Source: an uncultured Rikenella sp.
GTDB taxonomy: Bacteria > Bacteroidota > Bacteroidia > Bacteroidales > VadinHA17
NCBI GenBank assembly: GCA_964411345.1
Contig: CAYPKP010000001.1
Location: 85,906-149,905 of the forward strand
Length of the DNA: 64,000 bases
Direction of reading: 5' to 3'
The notes under the pieces were generated by a model that saw nothing but the letters and a program-made list of their open reading frames with translations, was not told the origin of the DNA and searched no databases. A program made the position numbers and the translations under genes. Each line of letters begins with the position of its first letter. Position 1 is the stretch's first letter. This document shows, one piece after another, positions 47,139-59,469 of this stretch.

Positions 47139-49256
47139 ATGAAGGAGTTTATCACTGTCTGCCCGCGGAACTGTTACAGCACCTGCACATTCAGGGTATT
47201 CACCGATGAGGGCAGGGTGGTACGGATCCTTCCGTATGAGGGTAACCTGGCGACACCGGAGGGGCCGTGCATCAAGGGATTATCGTATCTCGAACGTGAA
47301 TATTCGCCGTCACGGATCACCAGGCCGTTGCAGCGGCAGCCGGACGGTTCATTTGTTCCGGTTGGAATGGAGGAGGCACTGGGGATCATTGCAGGCAAGC
47401 TGCTCTCTGCCAGGGAGAAGCATGGTCCGCACTCGGTTCTTTTCTACAAGGGCAGCGGATACTCCGGCCTGAGCAATGATATTGCAGGCAACTTCTGGAG
47501 GCGCTTTGGCGGCGCCACCACCACCTACGGCAATCTATGCTGGCCGGCAGGCCTTGAGGCCGTAAGGCTTACCCTGGGGGAGGTGAAGCACAACGTGCCA
47601 TGGGATCTTGCCAATGCACGGCTCATAATACTATGGGGCAAGAACTCTGCAGAGACCAACGTGCAGGAGATGATACACATCGACCGCGCCAGGAAAAACG
47701 GCGCAAGGATAATTGTTATCGATCCGCGGCGAACCCCCACGGCTGACAAGGCTGACATACTGCTCAGGCCACGGCCCGGCACCGACGCAGCACTGGCACT
47801 GGCGATGGCAAAGGTGATTATAGACAGGAATCTTGTCGATAAAGAGTTTGTCAGTAAGAATGTAGCGGGTTTTGAAAAGTTTGCAGCGTCACTTAAGATA
47901 ACACCTCTCAATGCACAGGAGATCACAGGTATACCTTCCGAAACAATTGAAGAGATTGCAGTGATGGCCGCGGGGGCCGGGCAGCTAACGGTTGTGGCCG
48001 GCTACGGGCTGCAGCGTTATACCAACGGCGGTCAGACTATCCGTGCCATTCTTTCAATACCTGTCATCACAGGCATGATAGGCCGGCCAGGCTGCGGCTT
48101 CAACTTTGCCAACCTTCAGAGCTATATCTTTGATGAGGTGAAGGAACCGCTGAGCTATTATCCTGACAAGGAATCAGATAAACCTTTCCGGCGTGCCATC
48201 TCAATGGCAAGGTTCGGTACCGACTTTTATGCACTCCCGGAGCCCGGTATAGAGGTGGCCTGGATCGAACGTGGCAATCCTGTTACTCAGCTTCCCGGAA
48301 GCAGTGAAGTAACAGATGCCCTGAAGTCGGTACCCTTCAAGGTTGTCATTGAACAGTTTATGACAGACACAGCGGCCATGGCAGACATCATTCTGCCCGC
48401 AAAGGGTCTCTTTGAACAGTCTGATATAGTGGGATCATACTGGAACCCCTATGTGCAGTACAAGCCTGCTGTGGCTGACCCTCCCGGTGAGGTGCTGCCG
48501 GAGAGTGAGGTCTACTGGCGCCTGGCGCAGATGATGCGGTTAACAGCAGGAGGCAGTGGAGACGACTCGGTGCAGCCGGGCGTGAAGAGGCAACAGGGTG
48601 AAGCGGCTCTCACGGTGCAGGGGGAAGTCAGTGAGCAGAACAGTGCATCCGTTATTCCTGCTCCCGGTGATTACAACAGATGGCTCACGGAGCGCATCAG
48701 CAGCACGCCGGGGTTTGATCGTGAGGAACTGCTGAAGCATCCCGTAGTCCCTGAACAGAATGAGAATCCCGCATATGCCGACGGGCGTTTCAACACCCCT
48801 TCCGGCAAGATTGAGCTCTGGTCAGAGAGTGCGGTGAAGCTCTGGGGCGTCAACCCGCTGCCCAGCTATGAACCACTTGAAGATTTCGGTGAGGCGCATC
48901 TTCCCTTCAGGCTCATGACTCCCAATATAGCTTCCCGTATTCACTCTCAATTTGGCAACCTTGAGGTTGTCAGGAGTGTGATTGAAGCTCCTGCCTGGGA
49001 GGTCTCCGTTGCCGATGCCCGCAGGCTTCAGCTGAAGAGCGGTGACACCGTCAGGGTATTCAATTCGCTTGGTGAAGTACAAGGCAAAGTGAAGGTTACC
49101 GCACGCGTCAGCAGCGGGAGCATTGTTTACCCGAACGGCATATGGTTTGCCGAAGGTGGCGGAGTAAACAGGCTTATCCATCCGGCAGAGACTGACATGG
49201 GCTACGGAGCAGCCTTTCATAATACCCGGGCAGACATCGAAAAGGTAACGCCATGA
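47139..49256 (+). CDS. molybdopterin (bis-MGD) oxidoreductase catalytic subunit, DMSO-reductase superfamily, no Tat signal
   Basis: The N-terminus begins directly with the FS0 4Fe-4S motif CPRNCYSTC...C (CX2CX3C...C). The MGD-binding domains follow, with a C-terminal beta-barrel (GDTVRVFNSLGEV). No twin-arginine leader is present. Confidence 0.85.
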   Translation: MKEFITVCPRNCYSTCTFRVFTDEGRVVRILPYEGNLATPEGPCIKGLSYLEREYSPSRITRPLQRQPDGSFVPVGMEEALGIIAGKLLSAREKHGPHSVLFYKGSGYSGLSNDIAGNFWRRFGGATTTYGNLCWPAGLEAVRLTLGEVKHNVPWDLANARLIILWGKNSAETNVQEMIHIDRARKNGARIIVIDPRRTPTADKADILLRPRPGTDAALALAMAKVIIDRNLVDKEFVSKNVAGFEKFAASLKITPLNAQEITGIPSETIEEIAVMAAGAGQLTVVAGYGLQRYTNGGQTIRAILSIPVITGMIGRPGCGFNFANLQSYIFDEVKEPLSYYPDKESDKPFRRAISMARFGTDFYALPEPGIEVAWIERGNPVTQLPGSSEVTDALKSVPFKVVIEQFMTDTAAMADIILPAKGLFEQSDIVGSYWNPYVQYKPAVADPPGEVLPESEVYWRLAQMMRLTAGGSGDDSVQPGVKRQQGEAALTVQGEVSEQNSASVIPAPGDYNRWLTERISSTPGFDREELLKHPVVPEQNENPAYADGRFNTPSGKIELWSESAVKLWGVNPLPSYEPLEDFGEAHLPFRLMTPNIASRIHSQFGNLEVVRSVIEAPAWEVSVADARRLQLKSGDTVRVFNSLGEVQGKVKVTARVSSGSIVYPNGIWFAEGGGVNRLIHPAETDMGYGAAFHNTRADIEKVTP

Positions 49257-50593
49257 GAAGGGGATTTGCATTCGACGCTTCACTCTGTGTCGGCTGCGGG
49301 GCCTGCAGCGCTGCCTGTATTCTGGAGAACGGACTGCAGGCCGGTACGAGAAGAATATTTACCTGGAACGACAGAGCCCTGCCGTTGATGAGGGTGATCA
49401 GCCTCTCACTGGCATGCAACCACTGTGAAGAACCGGCATGTGCGGAGGGGTGTCCGGCAAAGGCCTACACCGTTGAGGACAACGGGGTGGTGATCCACCA
49501 TGCCGACAGGTGCATGGGATGCGGTTACTGCACCTGGAGGTGTCCCTACGATGCACCGAAGATCAATGAGGCCAAAGGCTATATTGAGAAATGTCACCTC
49601 TGCGTTGAGAGAGCAGGCGAAGGCATCGATCCGGCCTGCGTTACAGCCTGTCCGACAGGCGCTCTCAGGTTTGCAGGGCAGGAAAAGTTTGAACCTGTCG
49701 GCATAGGGTGGTTCCCTGAAACTGGTATAGGCCCTTCGCTGGTACTTAAAGAGGCTGCAAGCTTAAAGGGACCGTCAGTCATCCCGTCGGAAGAGGCGGA
49801 TGATACAGAGGATGAACTGCCGCCGGCAGGGCTGCCCGAAAGGATAAAGAAGGAGTGGAGCCTGATCCTCTTTTCTCTCCTGCTGATATCTGCTTCCGCC
49901 ATGATGATAATCACCGGCTTTTCGGATACAATAATCCCGGCGTTAATACCTTTTCTGCTTCTCACGTCGGCAATGGCTGTGTCTGTGGCGCACCTCGGGG
50001 TGCCGGCCAAAGCCTGGAGGGCAGCAATAAACATCACCTCCTCACCGCTGAGTCAGGAGATATTGCTGACAGGCCTGCTAACCCTTATCGCACTTCTCAA
50101 CTGGATATCTCCGGGGCTTATTCCGCCACGAGTGGGGGCAATCACCGCGCTGCTGGCACTTATATCCGTCGACCGCGTCTTCTTTGCTGCCCACAGGAGC
50201 CTGTCACTGAAACTGCATTCCGGCCAGGCTTTCTTTGCAGGTATATTTGCCGTGTCATGGTTCCGGGAGCCGGCAACGCTCTTCCTCCTCTTCTCCATGC
50301 TGGCTGCAATTTCGGTGGTTCTGAGATACAGGTCTGCAGAAGGAGCTCCCTTTGTGCGGAATCTCTATTATTTCAGGGCACTGGTGCTGCCGGTCGTCTT
50401 TATGCTGCTCTACCCTGACACTCCTGTAGCCGACGGTGCGGCGCTGGTACTGTTCCTGGCAGGAGTCGTGGCAGACAGGCTGCTTTTCTACTGCGATTTC
50501 AATCCCGTTAATATTAAAAACACAATTAAAGAACACTTTGCAAAAGAATGGGAAACCAGCATGAGCAATAGCTCAAATAAGGATGAAAGATAG
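49253..50593 (+). CDS. fused 4Fe-4S ferredoxin (DmsB-like) and DmsC-like polytopic membrane anchor
   Basis: ATGA overlap with the catalytic subunit gene. The N-terminal roughly 170 aa has several CxxCxxC(xxxC) cluster motifs (CVGCGACSAAC, CNHCEEPAC, CMGCGYCTWRC, CHLCVERAGEG...C). About 7-8 TM helices follow. Confidence 0.82.
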   Translation: MRRGFAFDASLCVGCGACSAACILENGLQAGTRRIFTWNDRALPLMRVISLSLACNHCEEPACAEGCPAKAYTVEDNGVVIHHADRCMGCGYCTWRCPYDAPKINEAKGYIEKCHLCVERAGEGIDPACVTACPTGALRFAGQEKFEPVGIGWFPETGIGPSLVLKEAASLKGPSVIPSEEADDTEDELPPAGLPERIKKEWSLILFSLLLISASAMMIITGFSDTIIPALIPFLLLTSAMAVSVAHLGVPAKAWRAAINITSSPLSQEILLTGLLTLIALLNWISPGLIPPRVGAITALLALISVDRVFFAAHRSLSLKLHSGQAFFAGIFAVSWFREPATLFLLFSMLAAISVVLRYRSAEGAPFVRNLYYFRALVLPVVFMLLYPDTPVADGAALVLFLAGVVADRLLFYCDFNPVNIKNTIKEHFAKEWETSMSNSSNKDER

Positions 50594-52716: not shown

Positions 52717-52724
52717 TAAGTTTG
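52717..52724 (+). promoter_or_regulatory. -7 promoter box TAAGTTTG upstream of ltaE
   Basis: Exact TAnnTTTG match, 21 nt before ATG 52746. It overlaps and argues against the track TTG start at 52722. Confidence 0.5.
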
Positions 52725-52745
52725 AACCTCATTATTTTAGTAGCT

Positions 52746-53762
52746 ATGATTGACCTGAGAAGTGACACCGTAACAAAGCCTTCCCCGGGCATGCTTGAGT
52801 TCATGATGAAAGCCAGCGTGGGAGACATGATTTTCGGTGAAGACCCGATGGTGAATGAACTTGAGGAGATGTCGGCTTCAATGTTCGGTGTGGAGGCAGC
52901 TCTCTACTGTCCTTCGGGAACGATGACAAACCAGATTGCAATCAAGGCTCATACCCGTCCCGGTGATGAGGTCATATGCAGCCGGATGGCACATATCTAC
53001 CAGTTTGAAGGGGGAGGAGTGGCCTTCAACTCGGGTGCTTCAGTGGCGCTTATTGACTCAGAAAACGGCACCTTCACCGCTGAAGAGGTGGCACGGCATA
53101 TCAATAATCCCAACGACTGGCACAAAGCCCGTACACGTCTGGTAGAGGTGGAGAACACCGTCAACAGGGGTGCCGGGGCATGCTGGGACTTCAGGGAGCT
53201 CGTGAGGATCAGGGAGCTGTGCGACAGTCATGGCCTGGGTTATCACCTCGACGGTGCCAGGCTTTTCAACGCCATGACTGCCGACGGCAGGAAGCCTGAG
53301 GAGTACGGTGCACTGTTTGATTCGGTCTCGATATGCCTCTCAAAGGGACTGGGGGCGCCGGTAGGTTCCGTGCTGCTGGGAGACAGGGATTTCATCAGGC
53401 TGGGGCAACGGATCAGGAAGGTGCTGGGTGGAGCCATGCGGCAGGCCGGATATATTGCCGCGGCGGGTATCTATGCTCTCCGCAACAACCTGGAGCGTCT
53501 TTCAGAAGACCACCGCAGCGCTGCAGCAATCACGGGGGCCCTGAAACAGTGCAGTATGGTAGAACAGGTCAGTTACGGAGGAACCAACCTCATCATTTTT
53601 ACACTGGTGCCCGGAATGAAAGCCACGGATTTCCTTGATAAGCTGAAAGAGCACGGTATCCTGGCTCTGAAGACAGGGGAGAGGAGCATAAGGTTCGTTA
53701 CTCACCTCGATCTGAGCGAGGATGATATACGAAAAACCTGTGATGTGCTGGTTAGCCTCTGA
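52746..53762 (+). CDS. ltaE: low-specificity L-threonine aldolase
   Basis: ATG 52746 gives MIDLRSDTVTKPS, the canonical threonine aldolase N-terminus. PLP fold type I with a SICLSKGLGAP lysine motif. Confidence 0.9.
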   Translation: MIDLRSDTVTKPSPGMLEFMMKASVGDMIFGEDPMVNELEEMSASMFGVEAALYCPSGTMTNQIAIKAHTRPGDEVICSRMAHIYQFEGGGVAFNSGASVALIDSENGTFTAEEVARHINNPNDWHKARTRLVEVENTVNRGAGACWDFRELVRIRELCDSHGLGYHLDGARLFNAMTADGRKPEEYGALFDSVSICLSKGLGAPVGSVLLGDRDFIRLGQRIRKVLGGAMRQAGYIAAAGIYALRNNLERLSEDHRSAAAITGALKQCSMVEQVSYGGTNLIIFTLVPGMKATDFLDKLKEHGILALKTGERSIRFVTHLDLSEDDIRKTCDVLVSL

Positions 53763-54120
53763 AGGTGAAGTAGACAGCACCCAGAATACAGAGGAAGGCG
53801 AAGAGATGATTGAGCCTGAAAGATTCTGTCCGGAAGAAGAGCAGGGTAAAAACCACAAATACCGAAATGGAAATGATCTCCTGGATCAGCTTAAGTTCAA
53901 CCAGAGAGAATGGACCTCCCGTACCGCGGTAGCCAATCCTGTTGGCCGGCACCTGGAAGAAATATTCAAACAGGGCTATTCCCCAGCTGGCCAGTACAAT
54001 GCCCGCAAGACCCAGCAACGCATTCTTTGAAATGTTCTGGTATTTAAGGTGCCCGTACCAGGCAACTGTCATGAATGAGTTGGAGACAATAAGCAGCAGG
54101 ATTGACCAGAGACCTTTCAT
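53752..54120 (-). CDS. DUF486 / small DMT-superfamily membrane protein
   Basis: 122 aa with 4 TM helices. The N-terminus LLLIVSNSFMTVAWYGHLKY is typical of DUF486. The start overlaps the GNAT stop codon by 4 nt. Confidence 0.8.
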   Translation of the reverse strand: MKGLWSILLLIVSNSFMTVAWYGHLKYQNISKNALLGLAGIVLASWGIALFEYFFQVPANRIGYRGTGGPFSLVELKLIQEIISISVFVVFTLLFFRTESFRLNHLFAFLCILGAVYFTFRG

Positions 54121-54617
54121 AATACCTTGCGGTAGACAAGTTTATCGTCACCGGGACCGTAGAACTCACGCAGTGTGGCCGCAAGCTCATAACCGTTCCT
54201 GAGATAAAAGTGCCTTGTCGGTTCGTAGAGAGGCCTGCCCGAGGTCTCGATCCAGACAATTTTTCCTTTCATTGAGCTGATTCGCTCTTCGGCGTTCTTG
54301 AGAATGACAGACCCGTAGTGCTTCTGTCTCTGTTCTTCCTGGATGGCTATCCAGTAGAGATCCCATGAGTGCACCGAAGACGGGTTGGGACCAAAACATG
54401 CAAAACCGATAACCTCACCGTTATCAAGGAGCCGCACCCAGTAGTAACCGCTGCTCTCCTGGCCTTTTTCAGCCGTTTCATCAGCCAGGGAGAGAGCTAC
54501 CTCTATCTCGAAGTCATAGAAGTATCCGGATGATGAAAGTATCTTTTCCAGAGCGGGCCTGTCGGCATGTGTTATCTCAAAGGAAATTTCCGTCATGGCT
54601 TCAACGGTTAAGGTCAT
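54117..54617 (-). CDS. GNAT family N-acetyltransferase
   Basis: 166 aa. The acetyl-CoA motif A region is WIAIQEEQRQKHYGSVILKNAE. An alternative ATG at 54596 would remove the 17-nt overlap with the upstream gene. Confidence 0.85.
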   Translation of the reverse strand: MTLTVEAMTEISFEITHADRPALEKILSSSGYFYDFEIEVALSLADETAEKGQESSGYYWVRLLDNGEVIGFACFGPNPSSVHSWDLYWIAIQEEQRQKHYGSVILKNAEERISSMKGKIVWIETSGRPLYEPTRHFYLRNGYELAATLREFYGPGDDKLVYRKVL

Positions 54618-55569
54618 TGATTATATCACCGATTATCTCCTCATGCGTCTGTCCGGCATGAAGGGCTGCCGCTATAAATCCGCCGTCGGGAGAGATGCAG
54701 GGGTTTGCATTGACCTCCAGCACGTAAACGTTTTCCCCGGCGTCAACACGCATGTCAACCCTTGCATAACCCCTTAGTCCGAATGTAGTCCAGCATGCCA
54801 GTACCGTTTTCTTCAGCTTCTCCAGAAGGTTGCTGCCCAGGTCATCAGGAAAGTGTCTCCTGCTGCTGTGGTACTGAAAGGTATCCTCCTCCCATTTTGC
54901 CTTATAGCTCACTATCCGGGGCAGATCATCAGGGTAATCGTGAAAGATAATCTCTGCCGGTGGCAGCATCACGGGGCCGTCAGGGCCCGATTTGACACTT
55001 ACATTAAACTCTCTGCCCTCGATGAACTCTTCGATGAACCAGTGGCTGTCATCCTTGCCTTTCAGGATATCAGGCATGGAGCCGTCAGAGGTAAAGACCG
55101 ACTCTTCCGTGATACCCAGTGAGCCGTCTTCCCAGACCGGCTTGAGAATATATTTTTTTCCCGGTTTCATGGCAGCCGCTTCGGATATTTTGTACCCGTC
55201 TGCAACAGGTATTCCGTGGGCCTTCATCATCTGCCGTGCGAGCACCTTGCTGCCTGAGAGAAAAGCGGCCTCCACGGAGCATCCAGTATAGGGTATATGA
55301 TGCATGTTGAGCAGGGCGGGGATGAAATAGAGTATCTCAGCCCTTTTTCCGACCGCCTCTGCCAGGTTGAAGACAAAGTCAAAATCCTCTTCTGCAATAC
55401 GTGCCATCTCGCTGAAGAAATTCTCGGTGATGCCTCTGCGCTGCGCATTGATGCCTATTTTTGTCAGGGTCGCCTCAATGAAATGGACCTGGTCGATGAC
55501 GTCAAGCTCGTCCGGCAGGGCGTCCGGTGCAGGTTCATTGTAGATAATCAGGCATTTTCGGTCCATCAT
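54601..55569 (-). CDS. ATP-grasp ligase, D-Ala-D-Ala ligase-like (copy 2)
   Basis: 322 aa. The ATP-grasp core has KYILKPVWEDGSLGI, FIEEFIEGREFNVSV and ARVDMRVDAGENVYVLEVNANP. Confidence 0.85.
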   Translation of the reverse strand: MMDRKCLIIYNEPAPDALPDELDVIDQVHFIEATLTKIGINAQRRGITENFFSEMARIAEEDFDFVFNLAEAVGKRAEILYFIPALLNMHHIPYTGCSVEAAFLSGSKVLARQMMKAHGIPVADGYKISEAAAMKPGKKYILKPVWEDGSLGITEESVFTSDGSMPDILKGKDDSHWFIEEFIEGREFNVSVKSGPDGPVMLPPAEIIFHDYPDDLPRIVSYKAKWEEDTFQYHSSRRHFPDDLGSNLLEKLKKTVLACWTTFGLRGYARVDMRVDAGENVYVLEVNANPCISPDGGFIAAALHAGQTHEEIIGDIINDLNR

Positions 55570-56540
55570 GCAAGTCCGTAACGTTTTTTTGCCGAGTCCA
55601 TTATCAGCTCAATAAGAGTTTCAAAGCCCATGCCGTTCATACGTGAGAGCATGGGAAGGTCGGAGTGTACCGGGTTCAGTCCGGCCAGCGGGTTCGCCTC
55701 TATGAAGCATATCCTGCCGTTACGGTCGGCCTTCATGTCGACGCGGCCGGCATCCACGGCGCCAAGAGCATTCCATGCTCCGAGCGCCACCGCATTGCAC
55801 TCATCGCGCACACTCTCGTCATACACTTCGTACCTGACATAGTCCTCATAATTCTCCTTCACCTCGACGGAATAGGGCAGGTCATCCCTGCATATCACCT
55901 CCATGCCGCCCGTTACCCTCGCTTCGCTGCCTGTGCCGGTGACACCGACGGTGAACTCCCTGCCGGGAAGGTATTCTTCAATAAGTACCGGCTGATGATA
56001 GGTCTCCAGCAATCCGGTTACAGCTGTCACCAGGGAATCAAGGTCGCGCAGCACGCTTTTTGAATTGATGCCCTTGCCTGTCCCCTCTGCCACAGGTTTG
56101 ACAAAGAGGGGATAAGCCAGTGAGGCGGCCCGCTCAAGGTCTTCGACAGAGGCAGCAATGATGCCGGGACATACCGGCACGCCGGCAGCTTCAACCACCA
56201 GGCGTGCCAGGTATTTGTTGAGTGAGACGCCCATTACCACCGGGCCGCTGAAGACATAGGGTATCCGGTACTGGTCGAGCAGTGCCGGAACGGCCGACTC
56301 ACGTCCGTCGCCGTGGAGTCCTTCGGCAATATTGAATACCATATCCCATCTGTGTCCGGCGGCCAGCCGTGGCACAAGCTCAAAGAGATTTCCGATGCGT
56401 TCCGTTTCGTAGCCGAGGGTGCGCAGGGTTGCCTCGAGGGCAGCCACCGTCTCCTCCTTGTCAAACTCGGCAGTCTCATCCATGGTATAGCCCCGTTCAA
56501 GGTACCAGGAACGGAGATCATAGGTAAGGCCTATCCTCAT
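55566..56540 (-). CDS. ATP-grasp ligase, D-Ala-D-Ala ligase-like (copy 1)
   Basis: 324 aa, starting MRIGLTYDLR. The core has YPLFVKPVAEGTGKGI, LIEEYLPGREFTVGV and GRVDMKADRNGRICFIEANPLAG. It is clearly divergent from copy 2. Confidence 0.85.
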   Translation of the reverse strand: MRIGLTYDLRSWYLERGYTMDETAEFDKEETVAALEATLRTLGYETERIGNLFELVPRLAAGHRWDMVFNIAEGLHGDGRESAVPALLDQYRIPYVFSGPVVMGVSLNKYLARLVVEAAGVPVCPGIIAASVEDLERAASLAYPLFVKPVAEGTGKGINSKSVLRDLDSLVTAVTGLLETYHQPVLIEEYLPGREFTVGVTGTGSEARVTGGMEVICRDDLPYSVEVKENYEDYVRYEVYDESVRDECNAVALGAWNALGAVDAGRVDMKADRNGRICFIEANPLAGLNPVHSDLPMLSRMNGMGFETLIELIMDSAKKRYGLA

Positions 56541-56547
56541 CAGTCAG

Positions 56548-57792
56548 TTACTTTTTATTGGGATAGGTATACCTGTTGTTTTTGTAGTTCCTGAGCACCC
56601 ACTTTTCGGGACCGCTCTCTACGACGTAAGATGGCAGGATGGGTATCTTGCCTCCTCCGCCGGGAGCATCAATGACAAACTGAGGCACTGCATAACCGCT
56701 GGTGTGACCCCGCATGTTCTCTATAATGTTTATCCCTGATTCCACTGTGGTACGGAAGTGGCTTGAACCGGGAATGAGGTCGCACTGGTAGATATAGTAG
56801 GGTCTCACGCGCACTGTCAGCAGCTTGTGCATCAGATCCTTCATCGTTGCGGGATCGTCGTTTATCCCCTTCAGCAGCACCGTCTGACTCCCCAGGGGTA
56901 TGCCTGCATCGGCAAGCATCTCACAAGCCCTGCGCGTCTCTTTCGTCATCTCGTCGGGATGGGTGAAGTGCAGACTGAGAAAGAGCGGGTGATATCTCCG
57001 GAGCATTGACACCAGCTGAGGGGTTATCCTCTGCGGGAGCACGGCAGGTATTTTGGTTCCTATCCTCAGTATCTCAATATGTCTTATGGATCTAAGCCGT
57101 GAGAGCAGGTAATCCAGCCTGTTGTTGTTCATCGTCAGGGGATCGCCTCCGCTGATAATGACATCACGTATTTCGGTATGCTCCTCAAGATACCTGAAGG
57201 CGATCTCCCATTCGTCCTTTGTCAGGTGTCCCAGCTTACCGACCGAATGCGACCGTGTGCAGTACCTGCAGTATGATGAGCAGAACTGCGTTACGGTGAA
57301 AAGCGCCCTGTCGGGATACCTGTGGATTATACCCGGTACGGGGCTGCTGCCTGTCTCGTCGAGCGGGTCTGCCTTCTCGGCCTCGGTGATAATCATCTCT
57401 CCCGAGGTTGGTATCATGGTGCGTCGAATCGGTGCGTCAGGTTCGGCATCATAGATGAGAGACATATAGTAGGGGGTGACGCGCAACGGCAACCTGTTCT
57501 TCAGCCTGTGAAGAGTACTCTTCTCGTCGTCGGTGAGCGTCATGACGCGCGACAGGGCTTCGGCCGTGGTGAAGGAATTGCGAAGCTGCCAGCGCCAGTC
57601 ATTCCAGGAATTAACATTTGTTAGTGGGAAGTAGCGGCGTATGAATTCCGAACTCCGGTTGCTAACTGCCTGATCGTGGGATCCGATCTGCGGGAAGATC
57701 ATGGTACCCGCGCCAGGTTCTTCGTCAGAAGAACAGCCCATGAGGCGGTGCTCATAACGAGTCACCGTAGCCTCTTTTCTGTTAGCGTTCAT
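56548..57792 (-). CDS. kamA: KamA-family radical SAM aminomutase, predicted lysine 2,3-aminomutase
   Basis: The motifs are WNDWRWQLRN, the cluster motif CSSYCRYCTR, YYIYQCDL, and FVIDAPGGGGK with the PLP lysine. An alternative start, Met31 at 57702, is possible. Confidence 0.9.
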   Translation of the reverse strand: MNANRKEATVTRYEHRLMGCSSDEEPGAGTMIFPQIGSHDQAVSNRSSEFIRRYFPLTNVNSWNDWRWQLRNSFTTAEALSRVMTLTDDEKSTLHRLKNRLPLRVTPYYMSLIYDAEPDAPIRRTMIPTSGEMIITEAEKADPLDETGSSPVPGIIHRYPDRALFTVTQFCSSYCRYCTRSHSVGKLGHLTKDEWEIAFRYLEEHTEIRDVIISGGDPLTMNNNRLDYLLSRLRSIRHIEILRIGTKIPAVLPQRITPQLVSMLRRYHPLFLSLHFTHPDEMTKETRRACEMLADAGIPLGSQTVLLKGINDDPATMKDLMHKLLTVRVRPYYIYQCDLIPGSSHFRTTVESGINIIENMRGHTSGYAVPQFVIDAPGGGGKIPILPSYVVESGPEKWVLRNYKNNRYTYPNKK

Positions 57793-58038
57793 ACTTCGGT
57801 AAAATAATTTACCTTCTTTGTCTGGTTGTTGTTTCTAATTGTTTTTAGTGAATATTTTATTTCAAAAATTTCCGCTAAGATATCAAATGGAACAGGTGCG
57901 AAAATTATGGCCGGGGAAAGATATCAACAGGGATTGTCCGCCTGTTGCTGCCTGACAGTCAGATTAATAACTATTATGGCGGGAAGTTATTCACTGTTCC
58001 TTTTTGGTCCTTTGAAGTGATGGCCTTCAATTGAGGCG

Positions 58039-58046
58039 CAAACATA
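58039..58046 (-). promoter_or_regulatory. -7 promoter box (TATGTTTG on the minus strand), the only consensus box upstream of kamA
   Basis: Plus-strand CAAACATA is the minus-strand TAnnTTTG. It lies about 246 nt upstream of the kamA ATG, directly after the GH130 stop codon. Confidence 0.35.
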
Positions 58047-58048
58047 TA

Positions 58049-59248
58049 TTAAATTTCAATATCCGGATACTTCTGAGCAATTATTTTCAGATTATTTTTC
58101 ACCATCTCATCACGTTGGGCAGCACACAGCTGGGTGCGTCCCGCGTCTTCCGGTGTATTCATCACATAATCAGTCAGTTTGTCCATTGTTGTTGTTGCCA
58201 CATGCATCCTGGTGTCTGAGCTTGCATAGTAGACAAATACCGTGCCGTCTTCATCTGCTATCCAGCCGTTGCTGAAGACTACATTGGATACGTCGCCTAC
58301 CCTCTCTTCATCAAGCGGTTCCAGGAAATGACCTGAGGGTCTTCTGATCACTTTCCAGGGCTCCTCCGGTGATGTGAGGAAGAGATAGAGGGTATAGCGC
58401 AAACCGGCTGCCGTCCTTCTCACTCCATGTGCAAGGTGAATCCACCCGTGCTCACATTTCAGCGGCGCAGGACCCTGACCGTTCTTAACCTCCCTGACAG
58501 TATGGTATTGCCTGGCATCCACAAGCACCTCCTCTCCCAGGACGGCATGCTCCATGCTGTCGCAGAAGCCTGCCGAAATACCGCTGTCGCCTGTCTCAAT
58601 GAATCCCGACTGCGGCCGGGTATAGATCATATATCTCCCTTTGACGAATTCCGGGTGCAGCACGCAGTTTCTCTGCTGCGCTGCTGACGACCTCAGATCA
58701 TCAAGCCTCTCCCAGTTATCGAGGTCCCTGGTCCTGGCTATGCCGCAGCTTGCAAGAGCGGCTGATGAATCATCCGGCTTGCTCTTATCCTTCCGCTCTG
58801 CACAGAAGAGGCCGTAGATCCATCCGTCTTCATGTCTGGTGAGACGTATATCATAGACATTCATCTCGGGATCATCCGTGACGGGCATCACTATGGGGTG
58901 ACTGCGGAAACGCCAGTTGTCGATGCCGTTGGGGCTCTCCGCTATGGCGAAGAACGACTTCACGTCGAACCCTTCGGTTCTGACAGCCAGGCAGTACTTG
59001 CCGTCATGTTTTATCGCCCCTGCGTTGAAGGTGGTGTTGATGCCCAGCCGTGTCATGAGGTGCGGGTTGGTCATGTAGTTGAGGTCATACCTCCAGAATA
59101 CCGGTGTATGATCGCGGGTTATGATAGGGTACAGATAACGGTCATAGATTCCGTTGCCGTCTGTTCTCCTTTTGTTCCGCCGGCTGACAAGAGCAGAGTG
59201 CTCTTCAAAGAGTTGCCTGACCCTGCTGTCAAAATCCTTTTCTGTCAT
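58049..59248 (-). CDS. GH130 family beta-mannoside phosphorylase (mannosylglucose phosphorylase-like)
   Basis: ATG 59248 (MTEKDFDSRVRQLFEEHSALVSRRN) gives about 399 aa, the GH130_1 size. It has the five-bladed propeller motifs (FNAGAIKHDGKY, RDLDNWERL, VFVYYASSDTRMHVA). The start is supported by a -7 box 23 nt upstream. The track start at 59365 is rejected. Confidence 0.85.
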   Translation of the reverse strand: MTEKDFDSRVRQLFEEHSALVSRRNKRRTDGNGIYDRYLYPIITRDHTPVFWRYDLNYMTNPHLMTRLGINTTFNAGAIKHDGKYCLAVRTEGFDVKSFFAIAESPNGIDNWRFRSHPIVMPVTDDPEMNVYDIRLTRHEDGWIYGLFCAERKDKSKPDDSSAALASCGIARTRDLDNWERLDDLRSSAAQQRNCVLHPEFVKGRYMIYTRPQSGFIETGDSGISAGFCDSMEHAVLGEEVLVDARQYHTVREVKNGQGPAPLKCEHGWIHLAHGVRRTAAGLRYTLYLFLTSPEEPWKVIRRPSGHFLEPLDEERVGDVSNVVFSNGWIADEDGTVFVYYASSDTRMHVATTTMDKLTDYVMNTPEDAGRTQLCAAQRDEMVKNNLKIIAQKYPDIEI

Positions 59249-59271
59249 TGTCTCCAGGTATATATCCGGAA

Positions 59272-59279
59272 CAAATATA
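59272..59279 (-). promoter_or_regulatory. -7 promoter box (TATATTTG on the minus strand) for the GH130 gene
   Basis: Plus-strand CAAATATA, 23 nt upstream of ATG 59248. Confidence 0.55.
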
Positions 59280-59469
59280 ACGGATAACGCAAAGTCTGCC
59301 CGGGGATTGTATTCCATATTCCGGCATTTGTTGAAACTTTTATATATTGCTCTCAGTAATCTCATAAACGTAGAAGCGAAATTTGCATGTCAAACAGCTC
59401 ATTGCGTTGACAGTTAATAAATTGAATATAGCTTTCATTGCACTTCTGTAACAACTGAAATTCAAGCCG

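Follow-up and report, generated by a model that had tools for sequence, protein, structure and literature searches.

What does a bacterium make with a gene cassette in which two putative amide-forming ligases stand between a lysine-type 2,3-aminomutase and an acetyltransferase? We addressed this question for a locus in a 64,000-nucleotide window (the whole stretch of DNA that was analysed) from an uncultured Rikenella sp. An ORF check of the window found all five minus-strand ORFs at 53752-57792, encoding in order a KamA-family radical SAM/PLP 2,3-aminomutase, two ATP-grasp ligases (AG1 and AG2), a small GNAT N-acetyltransferase and a small DMT_6/DUF486 membrane protein. Successive genes are 7 nt apart at the first junction and overlap by 4, 17 and 4 nt at the next three. 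That is, the tight packing, coordinates, junctions and family assignments of the original prediction were all borne out by ORF coordinates and domain matches.

The GC content of the cassette equals that of its flanks, which vary by lineage, contain housekeeping genes and are not genomic islands; plasmid copies of the cassette were not found. The 256-nt intergenic stretch 5' of kamA (57793..58048, minus strand) is the presumed promoter region. It yielded no Rfam family at E <= 1 and no excess of sigma-70-like matches over the shuffled expectation, and the region upstream of kamA held no conserved small ORF.

Conservation of the cassette

We gathered 80 genomic loci by AG1 alone, so that their neighbours were unselected. 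They hold the relatives closest to AG1 out of those in at least 594 species genomes, and neighbour counts refer to loci with enough flank. KamA lay directly upstream of AG1 in 55 of the 62 loci (not adjacent in 7/62), and AG2 was the next gene after AG1 in 72 of 73. The GNAT gene was present in 45/53 loci and absent from 8/53; KamA, AG1, AG2 and GNAT were all present in 36/47. According to record titles, the cassette occurs in Bacteroidota, Desulfobacterota/Syntrophales, Bdellovibrionota, Fusobacteriota and Aminicenantes, and further in Ignavibacteriales, Lentisphaerae, Planctomycetes (Pirellulales), Rhodospirillales and others. Its gene order is common to anaerobic bacteria of many phyla; Prolixibacter denitrificans DSM 27267 (L035) is one carrier. 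KamA and AG1 are fused in P0157/L085, while AG1::AG2 fusions comprise many proteins of 640-730 aa and also occur within an otherwise canonical cassette. Co-conservation of the ATP-grasp genes with kamA, on which the original prediction had staked itself, is thus kept across phyla and backed by both kinds of fusion.

A zinc-less KamA

The KamA-family protein (56548..57792, minus strand, 414 aa; LAM_C 7e-22, Radical_SAM 8e-15) aligned with C. subterminale LAM (2A5H) at E 7e-127. In LAM numbering, it keeps the CSSYCRYC motif (Cys125/129/132), Arg134, Asp293 (YQCD), Asp330 (VIDAPGGGGK) and the PLP Lys337. The zinc cysteines are lost (Cys268 is Asp and the CxCxxC tail is missing), and the N-terminus is extended by about 46 residues. 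The alignment thereby confirmed what had been read by eye from the letters: Fe-S motif, PLP lysine, both Asp residues, zinc-site loss and an extension then put at about 45 aa. Among 60 cassette-linked KamA homologues, the equivalents of the Fe-S Cys, Arg134, Asp293, Asp330 and Lys337 are invariant, and neither Cys268 nor the CxCxxC tail occurs in any; the two substrate-binding Asp residues, whose conservation had been named as decisive, held throughout.

The only model passed was that of the KamA subfamily (347 bits, cutoff 199). Scores fell below the cutoffs for AblA (470.6 < 525.4), Glu-2,3 (423.8 < 650), Arg-2,3 (380.7 < 600) and EpmB (249 < 369 bits). The enzyme is predicted to convert L-lysine into beta-lysine, a substrate specificity read from residue conservation only in a protein that scores below the AblA equivalog cutoff.

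Two divergent Ddl-like ligases

AG1 (55566..56540, minus strand, 324 aa) and AG2 (54601..55569, minus strand, 322 aa) both match Dala_Dala_lig_C (1e-22 and 2e-16) and share 28% identity, which upholds their description as two mutually divergent Ddl-like ATP-grasp ligases. Public records annotate both as "D-alanine--D-alanine ligase"; their best Ddl model scores are 125.6 bits (AG1) and 108.3 bits (AG2) versus a cutoff of 243. The AF2 model of AG1 (pLDDT 90.5) found only Ddl among its best PDB matches (TM ~0.79, ~25% identity).

Across 73 homologues of AG1, the equivalents of K97, K144, E180, E187, K215, R255, D257, E270, N272, G276 and S281 are invariant, Y216 is lost and an invariant Asp294 replaces Ddl L282. 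AG2 keeps the ATP/Mg core (K, K, E, K, R, D and N at 100%, E270 at 86%) with G276 changed to Cys (98%), L282 to Gly (100%) and Y216 to Trp (100%). Asp294 of AG1 also occurs in a sister module that has no KamA and is linked to an S58 peptidase, so it cannot be taken for a beta-lysine-specific determinant.

Acetyltransferase, deacetylase and membrane proteins

The GNAT gene (54117..54617, minus strand) encodes 166 aa, or 159 aa if translation starts at Met8 (54596), as it may, judging by the start called in the close relative L001; with that start, the AG2 and GNAT genes would no longer overlap by 17 nt but lie 4 nt apart. Matches to named families were weak only (rimI, 31 bits vs 86, and AAC(6')) besides Acetyltransf_1 (1e-10), and a profile search with the AblB model TIGR03827 gave no match. 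The closest solved structure is 2R7H, a 'putative D-alanine N-acetyltransferase' (E 2.4e-28). The earlier framing of this protein within AblA/AblB did not survive these results: since the GNAT is not an AblB/YodP homologue and is missing from 8/53 loci, 'AblA/AblB plus two inserted ligases' is an analogy, not homology. A GNAT::HDAC-type deacetylase belongs to the cassette in 13 loci, in some of them joined with the cassette GNAT in one protein (GNAT::HDAC::cassette-GNAT in Desulfobacterales, e.g. L067); its presence suggests reversible acetylation.

The DMT_6 gene (53752..54120, minus strand, 122 aa; PF04342 2.5e-40) was found in only 10/53 loci, all of them Bacteroidales close to the window. 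Elsewhere, the cassette holds a YitT/DUF2179 protein or an MFS transporter instead; one MFS gene lies between those of AG1 and AG2, and stop and start codons overlap there. The conserved unit is consequently not the five genes first proposed, but KamA-AG1-AG2, usually with GNAT. The DMT_6 protein is a lineage-specific accessory and putative transporter, and three unrelated membrane-protein families embedded in cassettes of different lineages fit a transported small molecule.

Proposed pathway and alternatives

We consider it probable, with clear room for doubt, that the cassette is a widespread, uncharacterised route to a short peptide or small amide that contains beta-lysine and in many cases an N-acetyl group; the searchable literature yielded no account of what it makes. 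Judging from its conserved active-site residues, the zinc-less KamA would convert L-lysine into beta-lysine. Each Ddl-like ligase would then form one amide bond via an acyl-phosphate, as their fold and fusions, the undamaged catalytic core and the order of the genes suggest, joining beta-lysine to one or two carboxylate/amine partners, perhaps common amino acids or more beta-lysine. These partners are guesses, because no cassette gene supplies a second building block; a conserved carrier or precursor peptide gene was likewise not found with the cassette. AG1 probably acts nearest KamA, since some genomes encode them as one fused protein. The small GNAT may acetylate an amine left free in the product or in an intermediate, a step taken as optional because the gene is absent in some lineages, and where GNAT::HDAC proteins occur the acetyl group could be removed again. 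DMT_6 might tentatively be assigned the membrane passage of the compound in this Bacteroidales lineage, and YitT-type or MFS proteins in others. The acetylated di- or tripeptide of the original prediction, acting as solute or antimetabolite, thus stays a predicted compound. For the physiological role, two possibilities lead: a protective solute that stays in the cell, or a metabolite that is exported.

The exported compound could be an antimetabolite or pro-drug, a variant to which we give a low probability: the ligases would make a toxic beta-lysyl peptide, acetylation by the GNAT would protect the producer, a membrane protein would export the product and a deacetylase or target-cell enzyme would reactivate it. 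ATP-grasp L-amino-acid ligases produce the dipeptide antibiotics bacilysin, tabtoxin and rhizocticin, and GNATs acetylating the beta-amine of beta-lysine give streptothricin resistance. Three unrelated transporter families within the cassette, including the MFS gene between AG1 and AG2, and the acetyltransferase/deacetylase pairs agree with such a role. It is opposed by the very broad, order-preserving spread in housekeeping contexts rather than islands, by a GC content equal to that of the flanks, by ligase-keeping lineages without GNAT, and by the finding that no transporter family is universal and no immunity or target-duplicate gene was seen.

The solute variant, in which an N-acetylated beta-lysine peptide would serve as an intracellular compatible solute like Nε-acetyl-beta-lysine or N-acetylglutaminylglutamine amide, appears similarly doubtful. 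Both beta-amino acids and N-acetylated dipeptides are known to serve as osmolytes (PMC1224877). The combination of aminomutase, GNAT and ATP-grasp enzymes follows the logic of osmolyte pathways, and the chromosomal housekeeping context agrees. However, the sources named in record titles are mostly non-saline (lakes, fens, groundwater, caves), the charge-neutralising GNAT is missing in some lineages, and embedded MFS, DMT and YitT genes are atypical of solute synthesis operons. The regulators seen near the cassettes, sigma-54 activators and a Crp-type protein, include none related to salt.

Improbable, by analogy with cyanophycin or the streptothricin beta-lysine chain, is iterative ligation to oligo(beta-lysine) or a mixed cationic peptide. 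The two ligases are often one fused protein of ~700 aa, KamA is the sole building-block supplier, AG2 has Gly and Cys at positions closing the second-substrate pocket of Ddl, and the sister double-ligase module is paired with its S58 (DmpA/BapA-family) aminopeptidase like a synthetase with a hydrolase. Yet that link belongs to a separate KamA-less clade, and the ligases have the plain fold of Ddl, which forms dipeptides, without additional domains or any domain for primer binding or polymer handling.

Very improbable, again by analogy, is that the ATP-grasp enzymes might put beta-lysine or a beta-lysyl peptide on a protein (compare EpmB/EpmA on EF-P and RimK on S6), with GNAT and HDAC acting on protein lysines as in AcuA/AcuC. 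EpmB is paralogous to KamA, paired GNAT and HDAC enzymes are well known as switches of protein acetylation, and the sole named GNAT family match counted here, a weak one, is RimI; but KamA scores 470 bits as LAM/AblA versus 249 as EpmB, the ligases are Ddl-like rather than RimK-like, the neighbourhood holds no conserved gene for a candidate substrate (efp, ribosomal protein, small ORF), and the cassette has embedded transporters. Hardly credible at all is plain Nε-acetyl-beta-lysine synthesis of the AblA/AblB type, or fermentation of lysine, with a pair of unrelated cell-wall D-Ala-D-Ala ligases in between by chance: AblA is the best model for KamA and the ligases are annotated as Ddl, but ligase-KamA co-conservation and fusion across phyla contradict it, the ligases score about half the Ddl cutoff with changed D-Ala pocket residues, the GNAT has no AblB match, and no kamDE, kdd, kce or kal lies near the cassette.

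Comparison with known systems

The proposed beta-lysine amide route shares with AblA/AblB (KamA/YodP) its starting enzyme, a lysine-type 2,3-aminomutase whose substrate-binding residues are identical, as well as an acetyltransferase in the operon and beta-amino-acid chemistry in anaerobes. It differs in a zinc-less KamA that falls short of the AblA cutoff, in a small GNAT (160 aa) unrelated to the AblB model and dispensable in some lineages, and in the two conserved ATP-grasp ligases between them. EpmB/EpmA of EF-P also use a KamA paralogue to provide beta-lysine for ATP-dependent amide ligation, but the cassette KamA misses the EpmB cutoff (249 vs 369 bits), efp linkage is absent, and EpmA is a lysyl-tRNA-synthetase paralogue whereas the cassette ligases are ATP-grasp enzymes.

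With Ddl/Van ligases, AG1 and AG2 have in common the fold (TM ~0.79) and the ATP/Mg/acyl-phosphate catalytic residues. They diverge in reaching ~25% identity and a score about half as high as the family cutoff, have Y216 lost or replaced by Trp, L282 by Asp (AG1) or Gly (AG2) and G276 by Cys (AG2), and are paired and KamA-linked outside any cell-wall gene context.

N-acetylated small peptides are made from amino acids by a GNAT and ATP-grasp ligase(s) in the N-acetylglutaminylglutamine amide pathway (Ngg, a GNAT plus ATP-grasp, and AsnO) and in mammalian NAA/NAAG synthesis (NAT8L and RIMKLA/B). Those ligases are RimK-like and the cassette's Ddl-like; moreover, the cassette has no amidotransferase, and its predicted building block, a beta-amino acid, is supplied by the cassette itself. 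Streptothricin-type beta-lysine chains are, unlike the proposed cassette product, made by NRPS-type enzymes in actinomycetes; the likeness proposed here, GNAT acetylation of a beta-lysine amine by NAT/STAT, is one of chemistry. The same holds for AcuA/AcuC and acetylpolyamine amidohydrolases, where HDAC-fold deacetylases act on N-acetylated aliphatic amines. Two-ATP-grasp routes to mycosporine-like amino acids (MysC and the Ddl-like MysD) and the L-amino-acid ligases BacD/YwfE, TabS and RizA concern other cores and other organisms; they are likened to the cassette by pathway logic rather than sequence-level membership, with successive ATP-grasp additions of amino acids onto a core from an enzyme of the same operon.

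Organization of the cassette

ORF calling recovered all five minus-strand genes of the cassette (53752–57792) at exactly the coordinates of the original prediction, which had been read from the sequence alone. They encode a KamA-family aminomutase (56548–57792, 414 aa), two Ddl-like ATP-grasp ligases, termed AG1 (55566–56540, 324 aa) and AG2 (54601–55569, 322 aa), a GNAT acetyltransferase (54117–54617, 166 aa) and a DMT_6/DUF486 membrane protein (53752–54120, 122 aa). The genes are as tightly packed as claimed, with a 7-nt gap followed by overlaps of 4, 17 and 4 nt, and Pfam agreed with the family assignments of all five proteins with strong E-values. The start of the GNAT gene is ambiguous: the ATG at 54617 yields 166 aa and the 17-nt overlap with AG2, while Met8 at 54596 yields 159 aa and may be the actual start, like the gene call of the orthologue in L001, a locus from a close relative.

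The GC content of the cassette region equals that of its flanks, which comprise GH130, GH18, threonine aldolase and UDG genes. The threonine-aldolase/GntG-family gene (52722–53762, plus strand) is convergent with the DMT_6 gene and their 3' ends overlap by 11 nt (53752–53762), as in L001. On the other side, the GH130 ORF (58049–59365) measures 438 aa from its first ATG, compared to 399 aa called for the L001 orthologue; its true start is probably located downstream, which would lengthen the gap next to the intergenic region upstream of kamA. Further away, positions 47139–50593 of the window are syntenic with L001 and carry a 705-aa ORF (47139–49256), a 446-aa iron-sulfur/membrane-anchor protein and a Cys/Met PLP enzyme gene; the L001 orthologues of the first two ORFs comprise Molybdopterin and Fer4_11 plus DmsC domains, that is, a DMSO-reductase-family complex.

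Upstream of kamA, an Rfam search gave no element for the window or for 11 diverse loci, and scans for sigma-70 promoters and terminators did not exceed shuffled expectation. In Desulfobacterota, genes for NtrC-family sigma-54 activators are located upstream of the cassette (L068, L069, L079, L082, L083), and a sigma-54-type motif, TGGCAC-N5-TTGCT, precedes kamA in L058, L069 and L076. Nothing like these Desulfobacterota motifs or activators was found in the window. A conserved small ORF encoding a LysW-like carrier or precursor peptide was also considered and rejected; the upstream ORFs of L082 have no relation to those of L083, and the window lacks any such ORF.

Conservation across genomes

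AG1 and ten relatives (46–53% identity) were combined into a profile, which was scanned against species genomes and matched in at least 594 of them. We surveyed the best 80 of these at least 594 loci by tblastn with the five window proteins. Since the loci were chosen on AG1 alone, their neighbouring genes provide an independent test. Among those of the best 80 with enough flanking sequence, KamA was located directly upstream of AG1 in 55 of 62, AG2 was present in 72 of 73 and GNAT in 45 of 53, and all four enzymes were found together in 36 of 47. DMT_6 was present in 10 of 53 only, and every one of these loci belongs to Bacteroidales close to the window. The five-gene set of the original prediction is therefore not conserved as a whole; the core consists of KamA, AG1 and AG2, usually with the GNAT, and the KamA-AG1-AG2-GNAT order is almost always kept. 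GNAT was absent from L006–L009, L011, L018, L029 and L039.

According to record titles, the carriers comprise Bacteroidota (Bacteroidales, Rikenellaceae, Prolixibacteraceae, Cytophagales, Chitinophaga, Ignavibacteriales), Desulfobacterota (Desulfobacterales, Desulfovibrionaceae, Syntrophales, Desulfomonilia, Desulfatiglans) and others (Bacteriovoracaceae, Ilyobacter, Aminicenantes, Lentisphaeraceae, Pirellulales, Rhodospirillales). One cultured carrier, Prolixibacter denitrificans DSM 27267 (L035), was identified among the best 80 of at least 594 loci, which makes the system experimentally tractable. The flanking genes vary by lineage and are ordinary housekeeping genes. No cassette member was detected on PLSDB plasmids, and loci that lack KamA or are interrupted revealed no gene for a second substrate, only unrelated or mobile genes.

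A zinc-less, probable lysine aminomutase

KamA aligns to the solved lysine 2,3-aminomutase of C. subterminale (2A5H) across residues 59–410 (E 7e-127), with about 46 residues ahead of the aligned core, in line with the predicted N-terminal extension of about 45 aa. The three CxxxCxxC cluster cysteines, Arg134, the PLP lysine Lys337 and both lysine-binding aspartates, Asp293 and Asp330, which had been read as conserved by eye, are kept (numbering of the clostridial enzyme). All 60 cassette-linked KamA homologues compared from other genomes share these catalytic and lysine-binding residues without exception. The clostridial zinc site is missing, again as predicted: Cys268 is replaced by Asp, there is no C-terminal CxCxxC, and none of the 60 homologues has either.

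KamA passed only the general KamA subfamily model TIGR00238 (347 versus a cutoff of 199 bits). It fell below the cutoffs of the AblA equivalog TIGR03820 (470.6 versus 525.4 bits), arginine 2,3-aminomutase (380.7 versus 600 bits) and EpmB (249 versus 369.3 bits). It also stayed under that of glutamate 2,3-aminomutase (423.8 versus 650 bits), and it retains both aspartates, which are reportedly replaced (Lys/Asn) in the latter enzyme. Since only TIGR00238 is passed, the residues are invariant and the zinc cysteines are absent in all 60 homologues, the cassette KamA is, judged by its sequence, a distinct zinc-less KamA subfamily. Its residues point to lysine as the most likely substrate.

Two Ddl-like ligases with altered pockets

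AG1 and AG2 share 28% identity, which bears out their description as mutually divergent Ddl-like ligases. Both match only Ddl-type models, at about half of the cutoff (125.6 and 108.3 versus 243 bits for PRK01372), and neither reached the D-Ala-D-Ala ligase family cutoff. Among solved structures, both come closest to Ddl enzymes (E 2e-22 and 3e-14), and with an AlphaFold model of AG1 (pLDDT 90.5) all PDB matches were Ddl (TM about 0.79, about 25% identity); this search revealed no closer characterised relative in the PDB.

We transferred E. coli DdlB numbering via HMMER alignments to 73 AG1 and 63 AG2 homologues. The ATP-grasp fold and the catalytic residues of Ddl are present, and both families keep the ATP/Mg/acyl-phosphate core (equivalents of K97, K144, E180/E187, K215, R255, D257, E270 and N272), so both ligases are probably active. 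The Ddl pocket set of Y216, S281 and L282 is retained in neither. In the 73 AG1 homologues, Y216 is lost and an invariant Asp takes the place of L282, with S281 kept; in the 63 AG2 homologues, Y216 is replaced by Trp, G276 by Cys and L282 by Gly, with Gly or Ser at S281. With scores under the cutoff and deviating D-Ala pocket residues, we rejected a cell-wall Ddl function. Named records in both ligase families (P0001–P0120, P0271–P0390) read "D-alanine--D-alanine ligase", "ATP-grasp domain-containing protein" or hypothetical. Given Ddl model scores of about half the cutoff and the changed pocket residues, the Ddl label seems to have been systematically misapplied to both families.

In a 50%-identity representative library, AG1 detected 501 cluster representatives at E <= 1e-30, many of which are 640–730 aa long and contain two ATP-grasp halves. 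Fusions also involve KamA. P0157 is a KamA::AG1 fusion of 746 aa; on its contig (L085, 6001–10666) the genes for an MFS/BT1-family transporter and then an AG2-like ligase come next, their ends overlapping, and transposase fragments flank this copy. L086 carries KamA, a fused AG1::AG2 and a gene joining a GNAT-like to a histone-deacetylase-family domain (GNAT::HDAC) in a row. Together, the GNAT::HDAC, KamA::AG1 and AG1::AG2 fusions tie all enzyme types into one process.

A KamA-less sister module consists of a fused double Ddl-like ATP-grasp protein with a Peptidase_S58 (DmpA/BapA-family) gene immediately after it (L087:2505–5310, L088:6001–9432, and the same arrangement in L089). The C-terminal half of its double ligase has the 'SDL' motif of AG1. 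Asp294 of AG1, the residue in place of L282 and an attractive candidate for contacting a cationic side chain, was considered as a marker of beta-lysine specificity and discarded because this module has it too. In L087, a sigma-54 activator is located upstream of the module.

Candidate acetylation, deacetylation and transport proteins

The GNAT protein did not match the AblB model TIGR03827 and matched RimI and AAC(6') weakly. Its single clear solved relative is 2R7H, an uncharacterised structural-genomics entry (E 2.4e-28). The GNAT::HDAC proteins do not match the AblB model either. The likeness to the AblA/AblB route is therefore one of analogy and not of homology, and an AblA/AblB pathway with inserted ligases was rejected, since the GNAT is not an AblB and some lineages do without it.

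In 13 related loci, the cassette encodes a protein that combines a GNAT-like domain at its N-terminus with a domain of the histone-deacetylase family (PF00850, E about 1e-74), for example at L023:4255–5997, L067:8218–10470, L083:10850–12646 and L086:2541–3929. The Desulfobacterales version additionally incorporates the cassette GNAT in one polypeptide (for example L067, 750 aa). Bacteroidales and Desulfobacterota versions share 53–60% identity, and NCBIfam holds no model for the protein. The fusions add a deacetylase that was invisible in the single-window view of the original prediction.

The DMT_6 protein matched no NCBIfam model, and nothing on its function came up in the consulted hits of a full-text literature search on DUF486, whose results included papers on DUF4861 and DUF4867. 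Other membrane proteins recur: a YitT/DUF2179 protein lies in or beside the cassette in five Desulfobacterota loci, and an MFS gene is located inside it in L085. The recurrence of membrane proteins that are not homologous to each other would suit a small molecule passing through the membrane, in one direction or the other. Directly after the cassette, on the opposite strand, the Desulfovibrionaceae loci L082 (9586–12056) and L069 encode a RimK ligase, an AstE/AspA-family deacylase and a RimB-like protein, another ligase/deacylase set, limited to these two closely related loci.

Proposed pathway and comparison with known systems

The enzyme families, intact active sites, conserved order and fusions suggest a pathway in which lysine would be converted to beta-lysine and then undergo two ATP-dependent amide ligations. 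An optional N-acetylation would follow, which in genomes with the HDAC-type protein could presumably be undone. No gene for a second building block that would point to the partner of beta-lysine is conserved. Tentatively, and with more doubt than belief, we propose that anaerobes of many phyla make an undescribed class of beta-lysine peptide metabolites, independent of ribosomes and NRPS, using two dedicated ligases derived from Ddl. The acetyltransferase/HDAC-type pair would switch its charge (cationic when deacetylated, neutral when acetylated), and lineage-specific transporters would move it.

Synthesis of an oligomer by the two ligases is a minor alternative to such a peptide metabolite. 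So is modification of a protein; of this kind, beta-lysylation of EF-P by EpmAB was set aside, as the EpmB cutoff was not reached and neither the window flanks nor related loci contain an EpmA-like or efp gene. A neighbour of about 187 aa in L041 and L048, considered as a link to EF-P, bears no resemblance to it and reads as flavin-reductase-like. Lysine fermentation (kamA-kamDE-kdd-kce-kal) can be dismissed, given the GH130, GH18, threonine aldolase and UDG flanks and no adjacent catabolic genes.

To our knowledge, few fates of beta-lysine are known: Nε-acetyl-beta-lysine, lysine fermentation, EF-P modification and actinomycete NRPS antibiotics. If the proposed peptide metabolite exists, paired Ddl-like ligases would constitute a fifth route, and with it a new metabolite class, in several hundred or more species of anaerobes from environmental and gut-related settings. 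Such a small-molecule system would be both new and widespread, rather than a variant of the methanogen osmolyte, and thousands of genes that now carry the name "D-alanine--D-alanine ligase" would gain a function; the name bears on cell-wall and vancomycin-resistance annotation. The cassette is widespread, coherent and directly testable, the enzymology comprising a defined substrate, two ligases and one acetyltransferase.

Full-text literature searches found the cassette nowhere described; an earlier in-silico mention is possible (2009 Iyer/Aravind amidoligase survey). A Pelobacter genome paper that touches on beta-lysine describes the classical ablAB pair alone. Nearest in logic are the synthesis of Nε-acetyl-beta-lysine and of the N-acetyl dipeptide solute NAGGN (PMC1224877). 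NAGGN itself, made by a fused GNAT/ATP-grasp Ngg plus AsnO, was rejected, with no amidotransferase in the window or related loci and ligases that are Ddl-like. Also near in logic are the mycosporine-like amino acids, a two-ligase small-molecule pathway, and the antibiotics made by L-amino-acid ligases. Clusters for the latter would hold self-resistance and export genes; the cassette has a GNAT and varied transporters, neither of them universal. Its combination of genes is present in none of these systems. The cassette joins two known kinds, a beta-lysine pathway and ATP-grasp peptide ligases, and is not categorically new.
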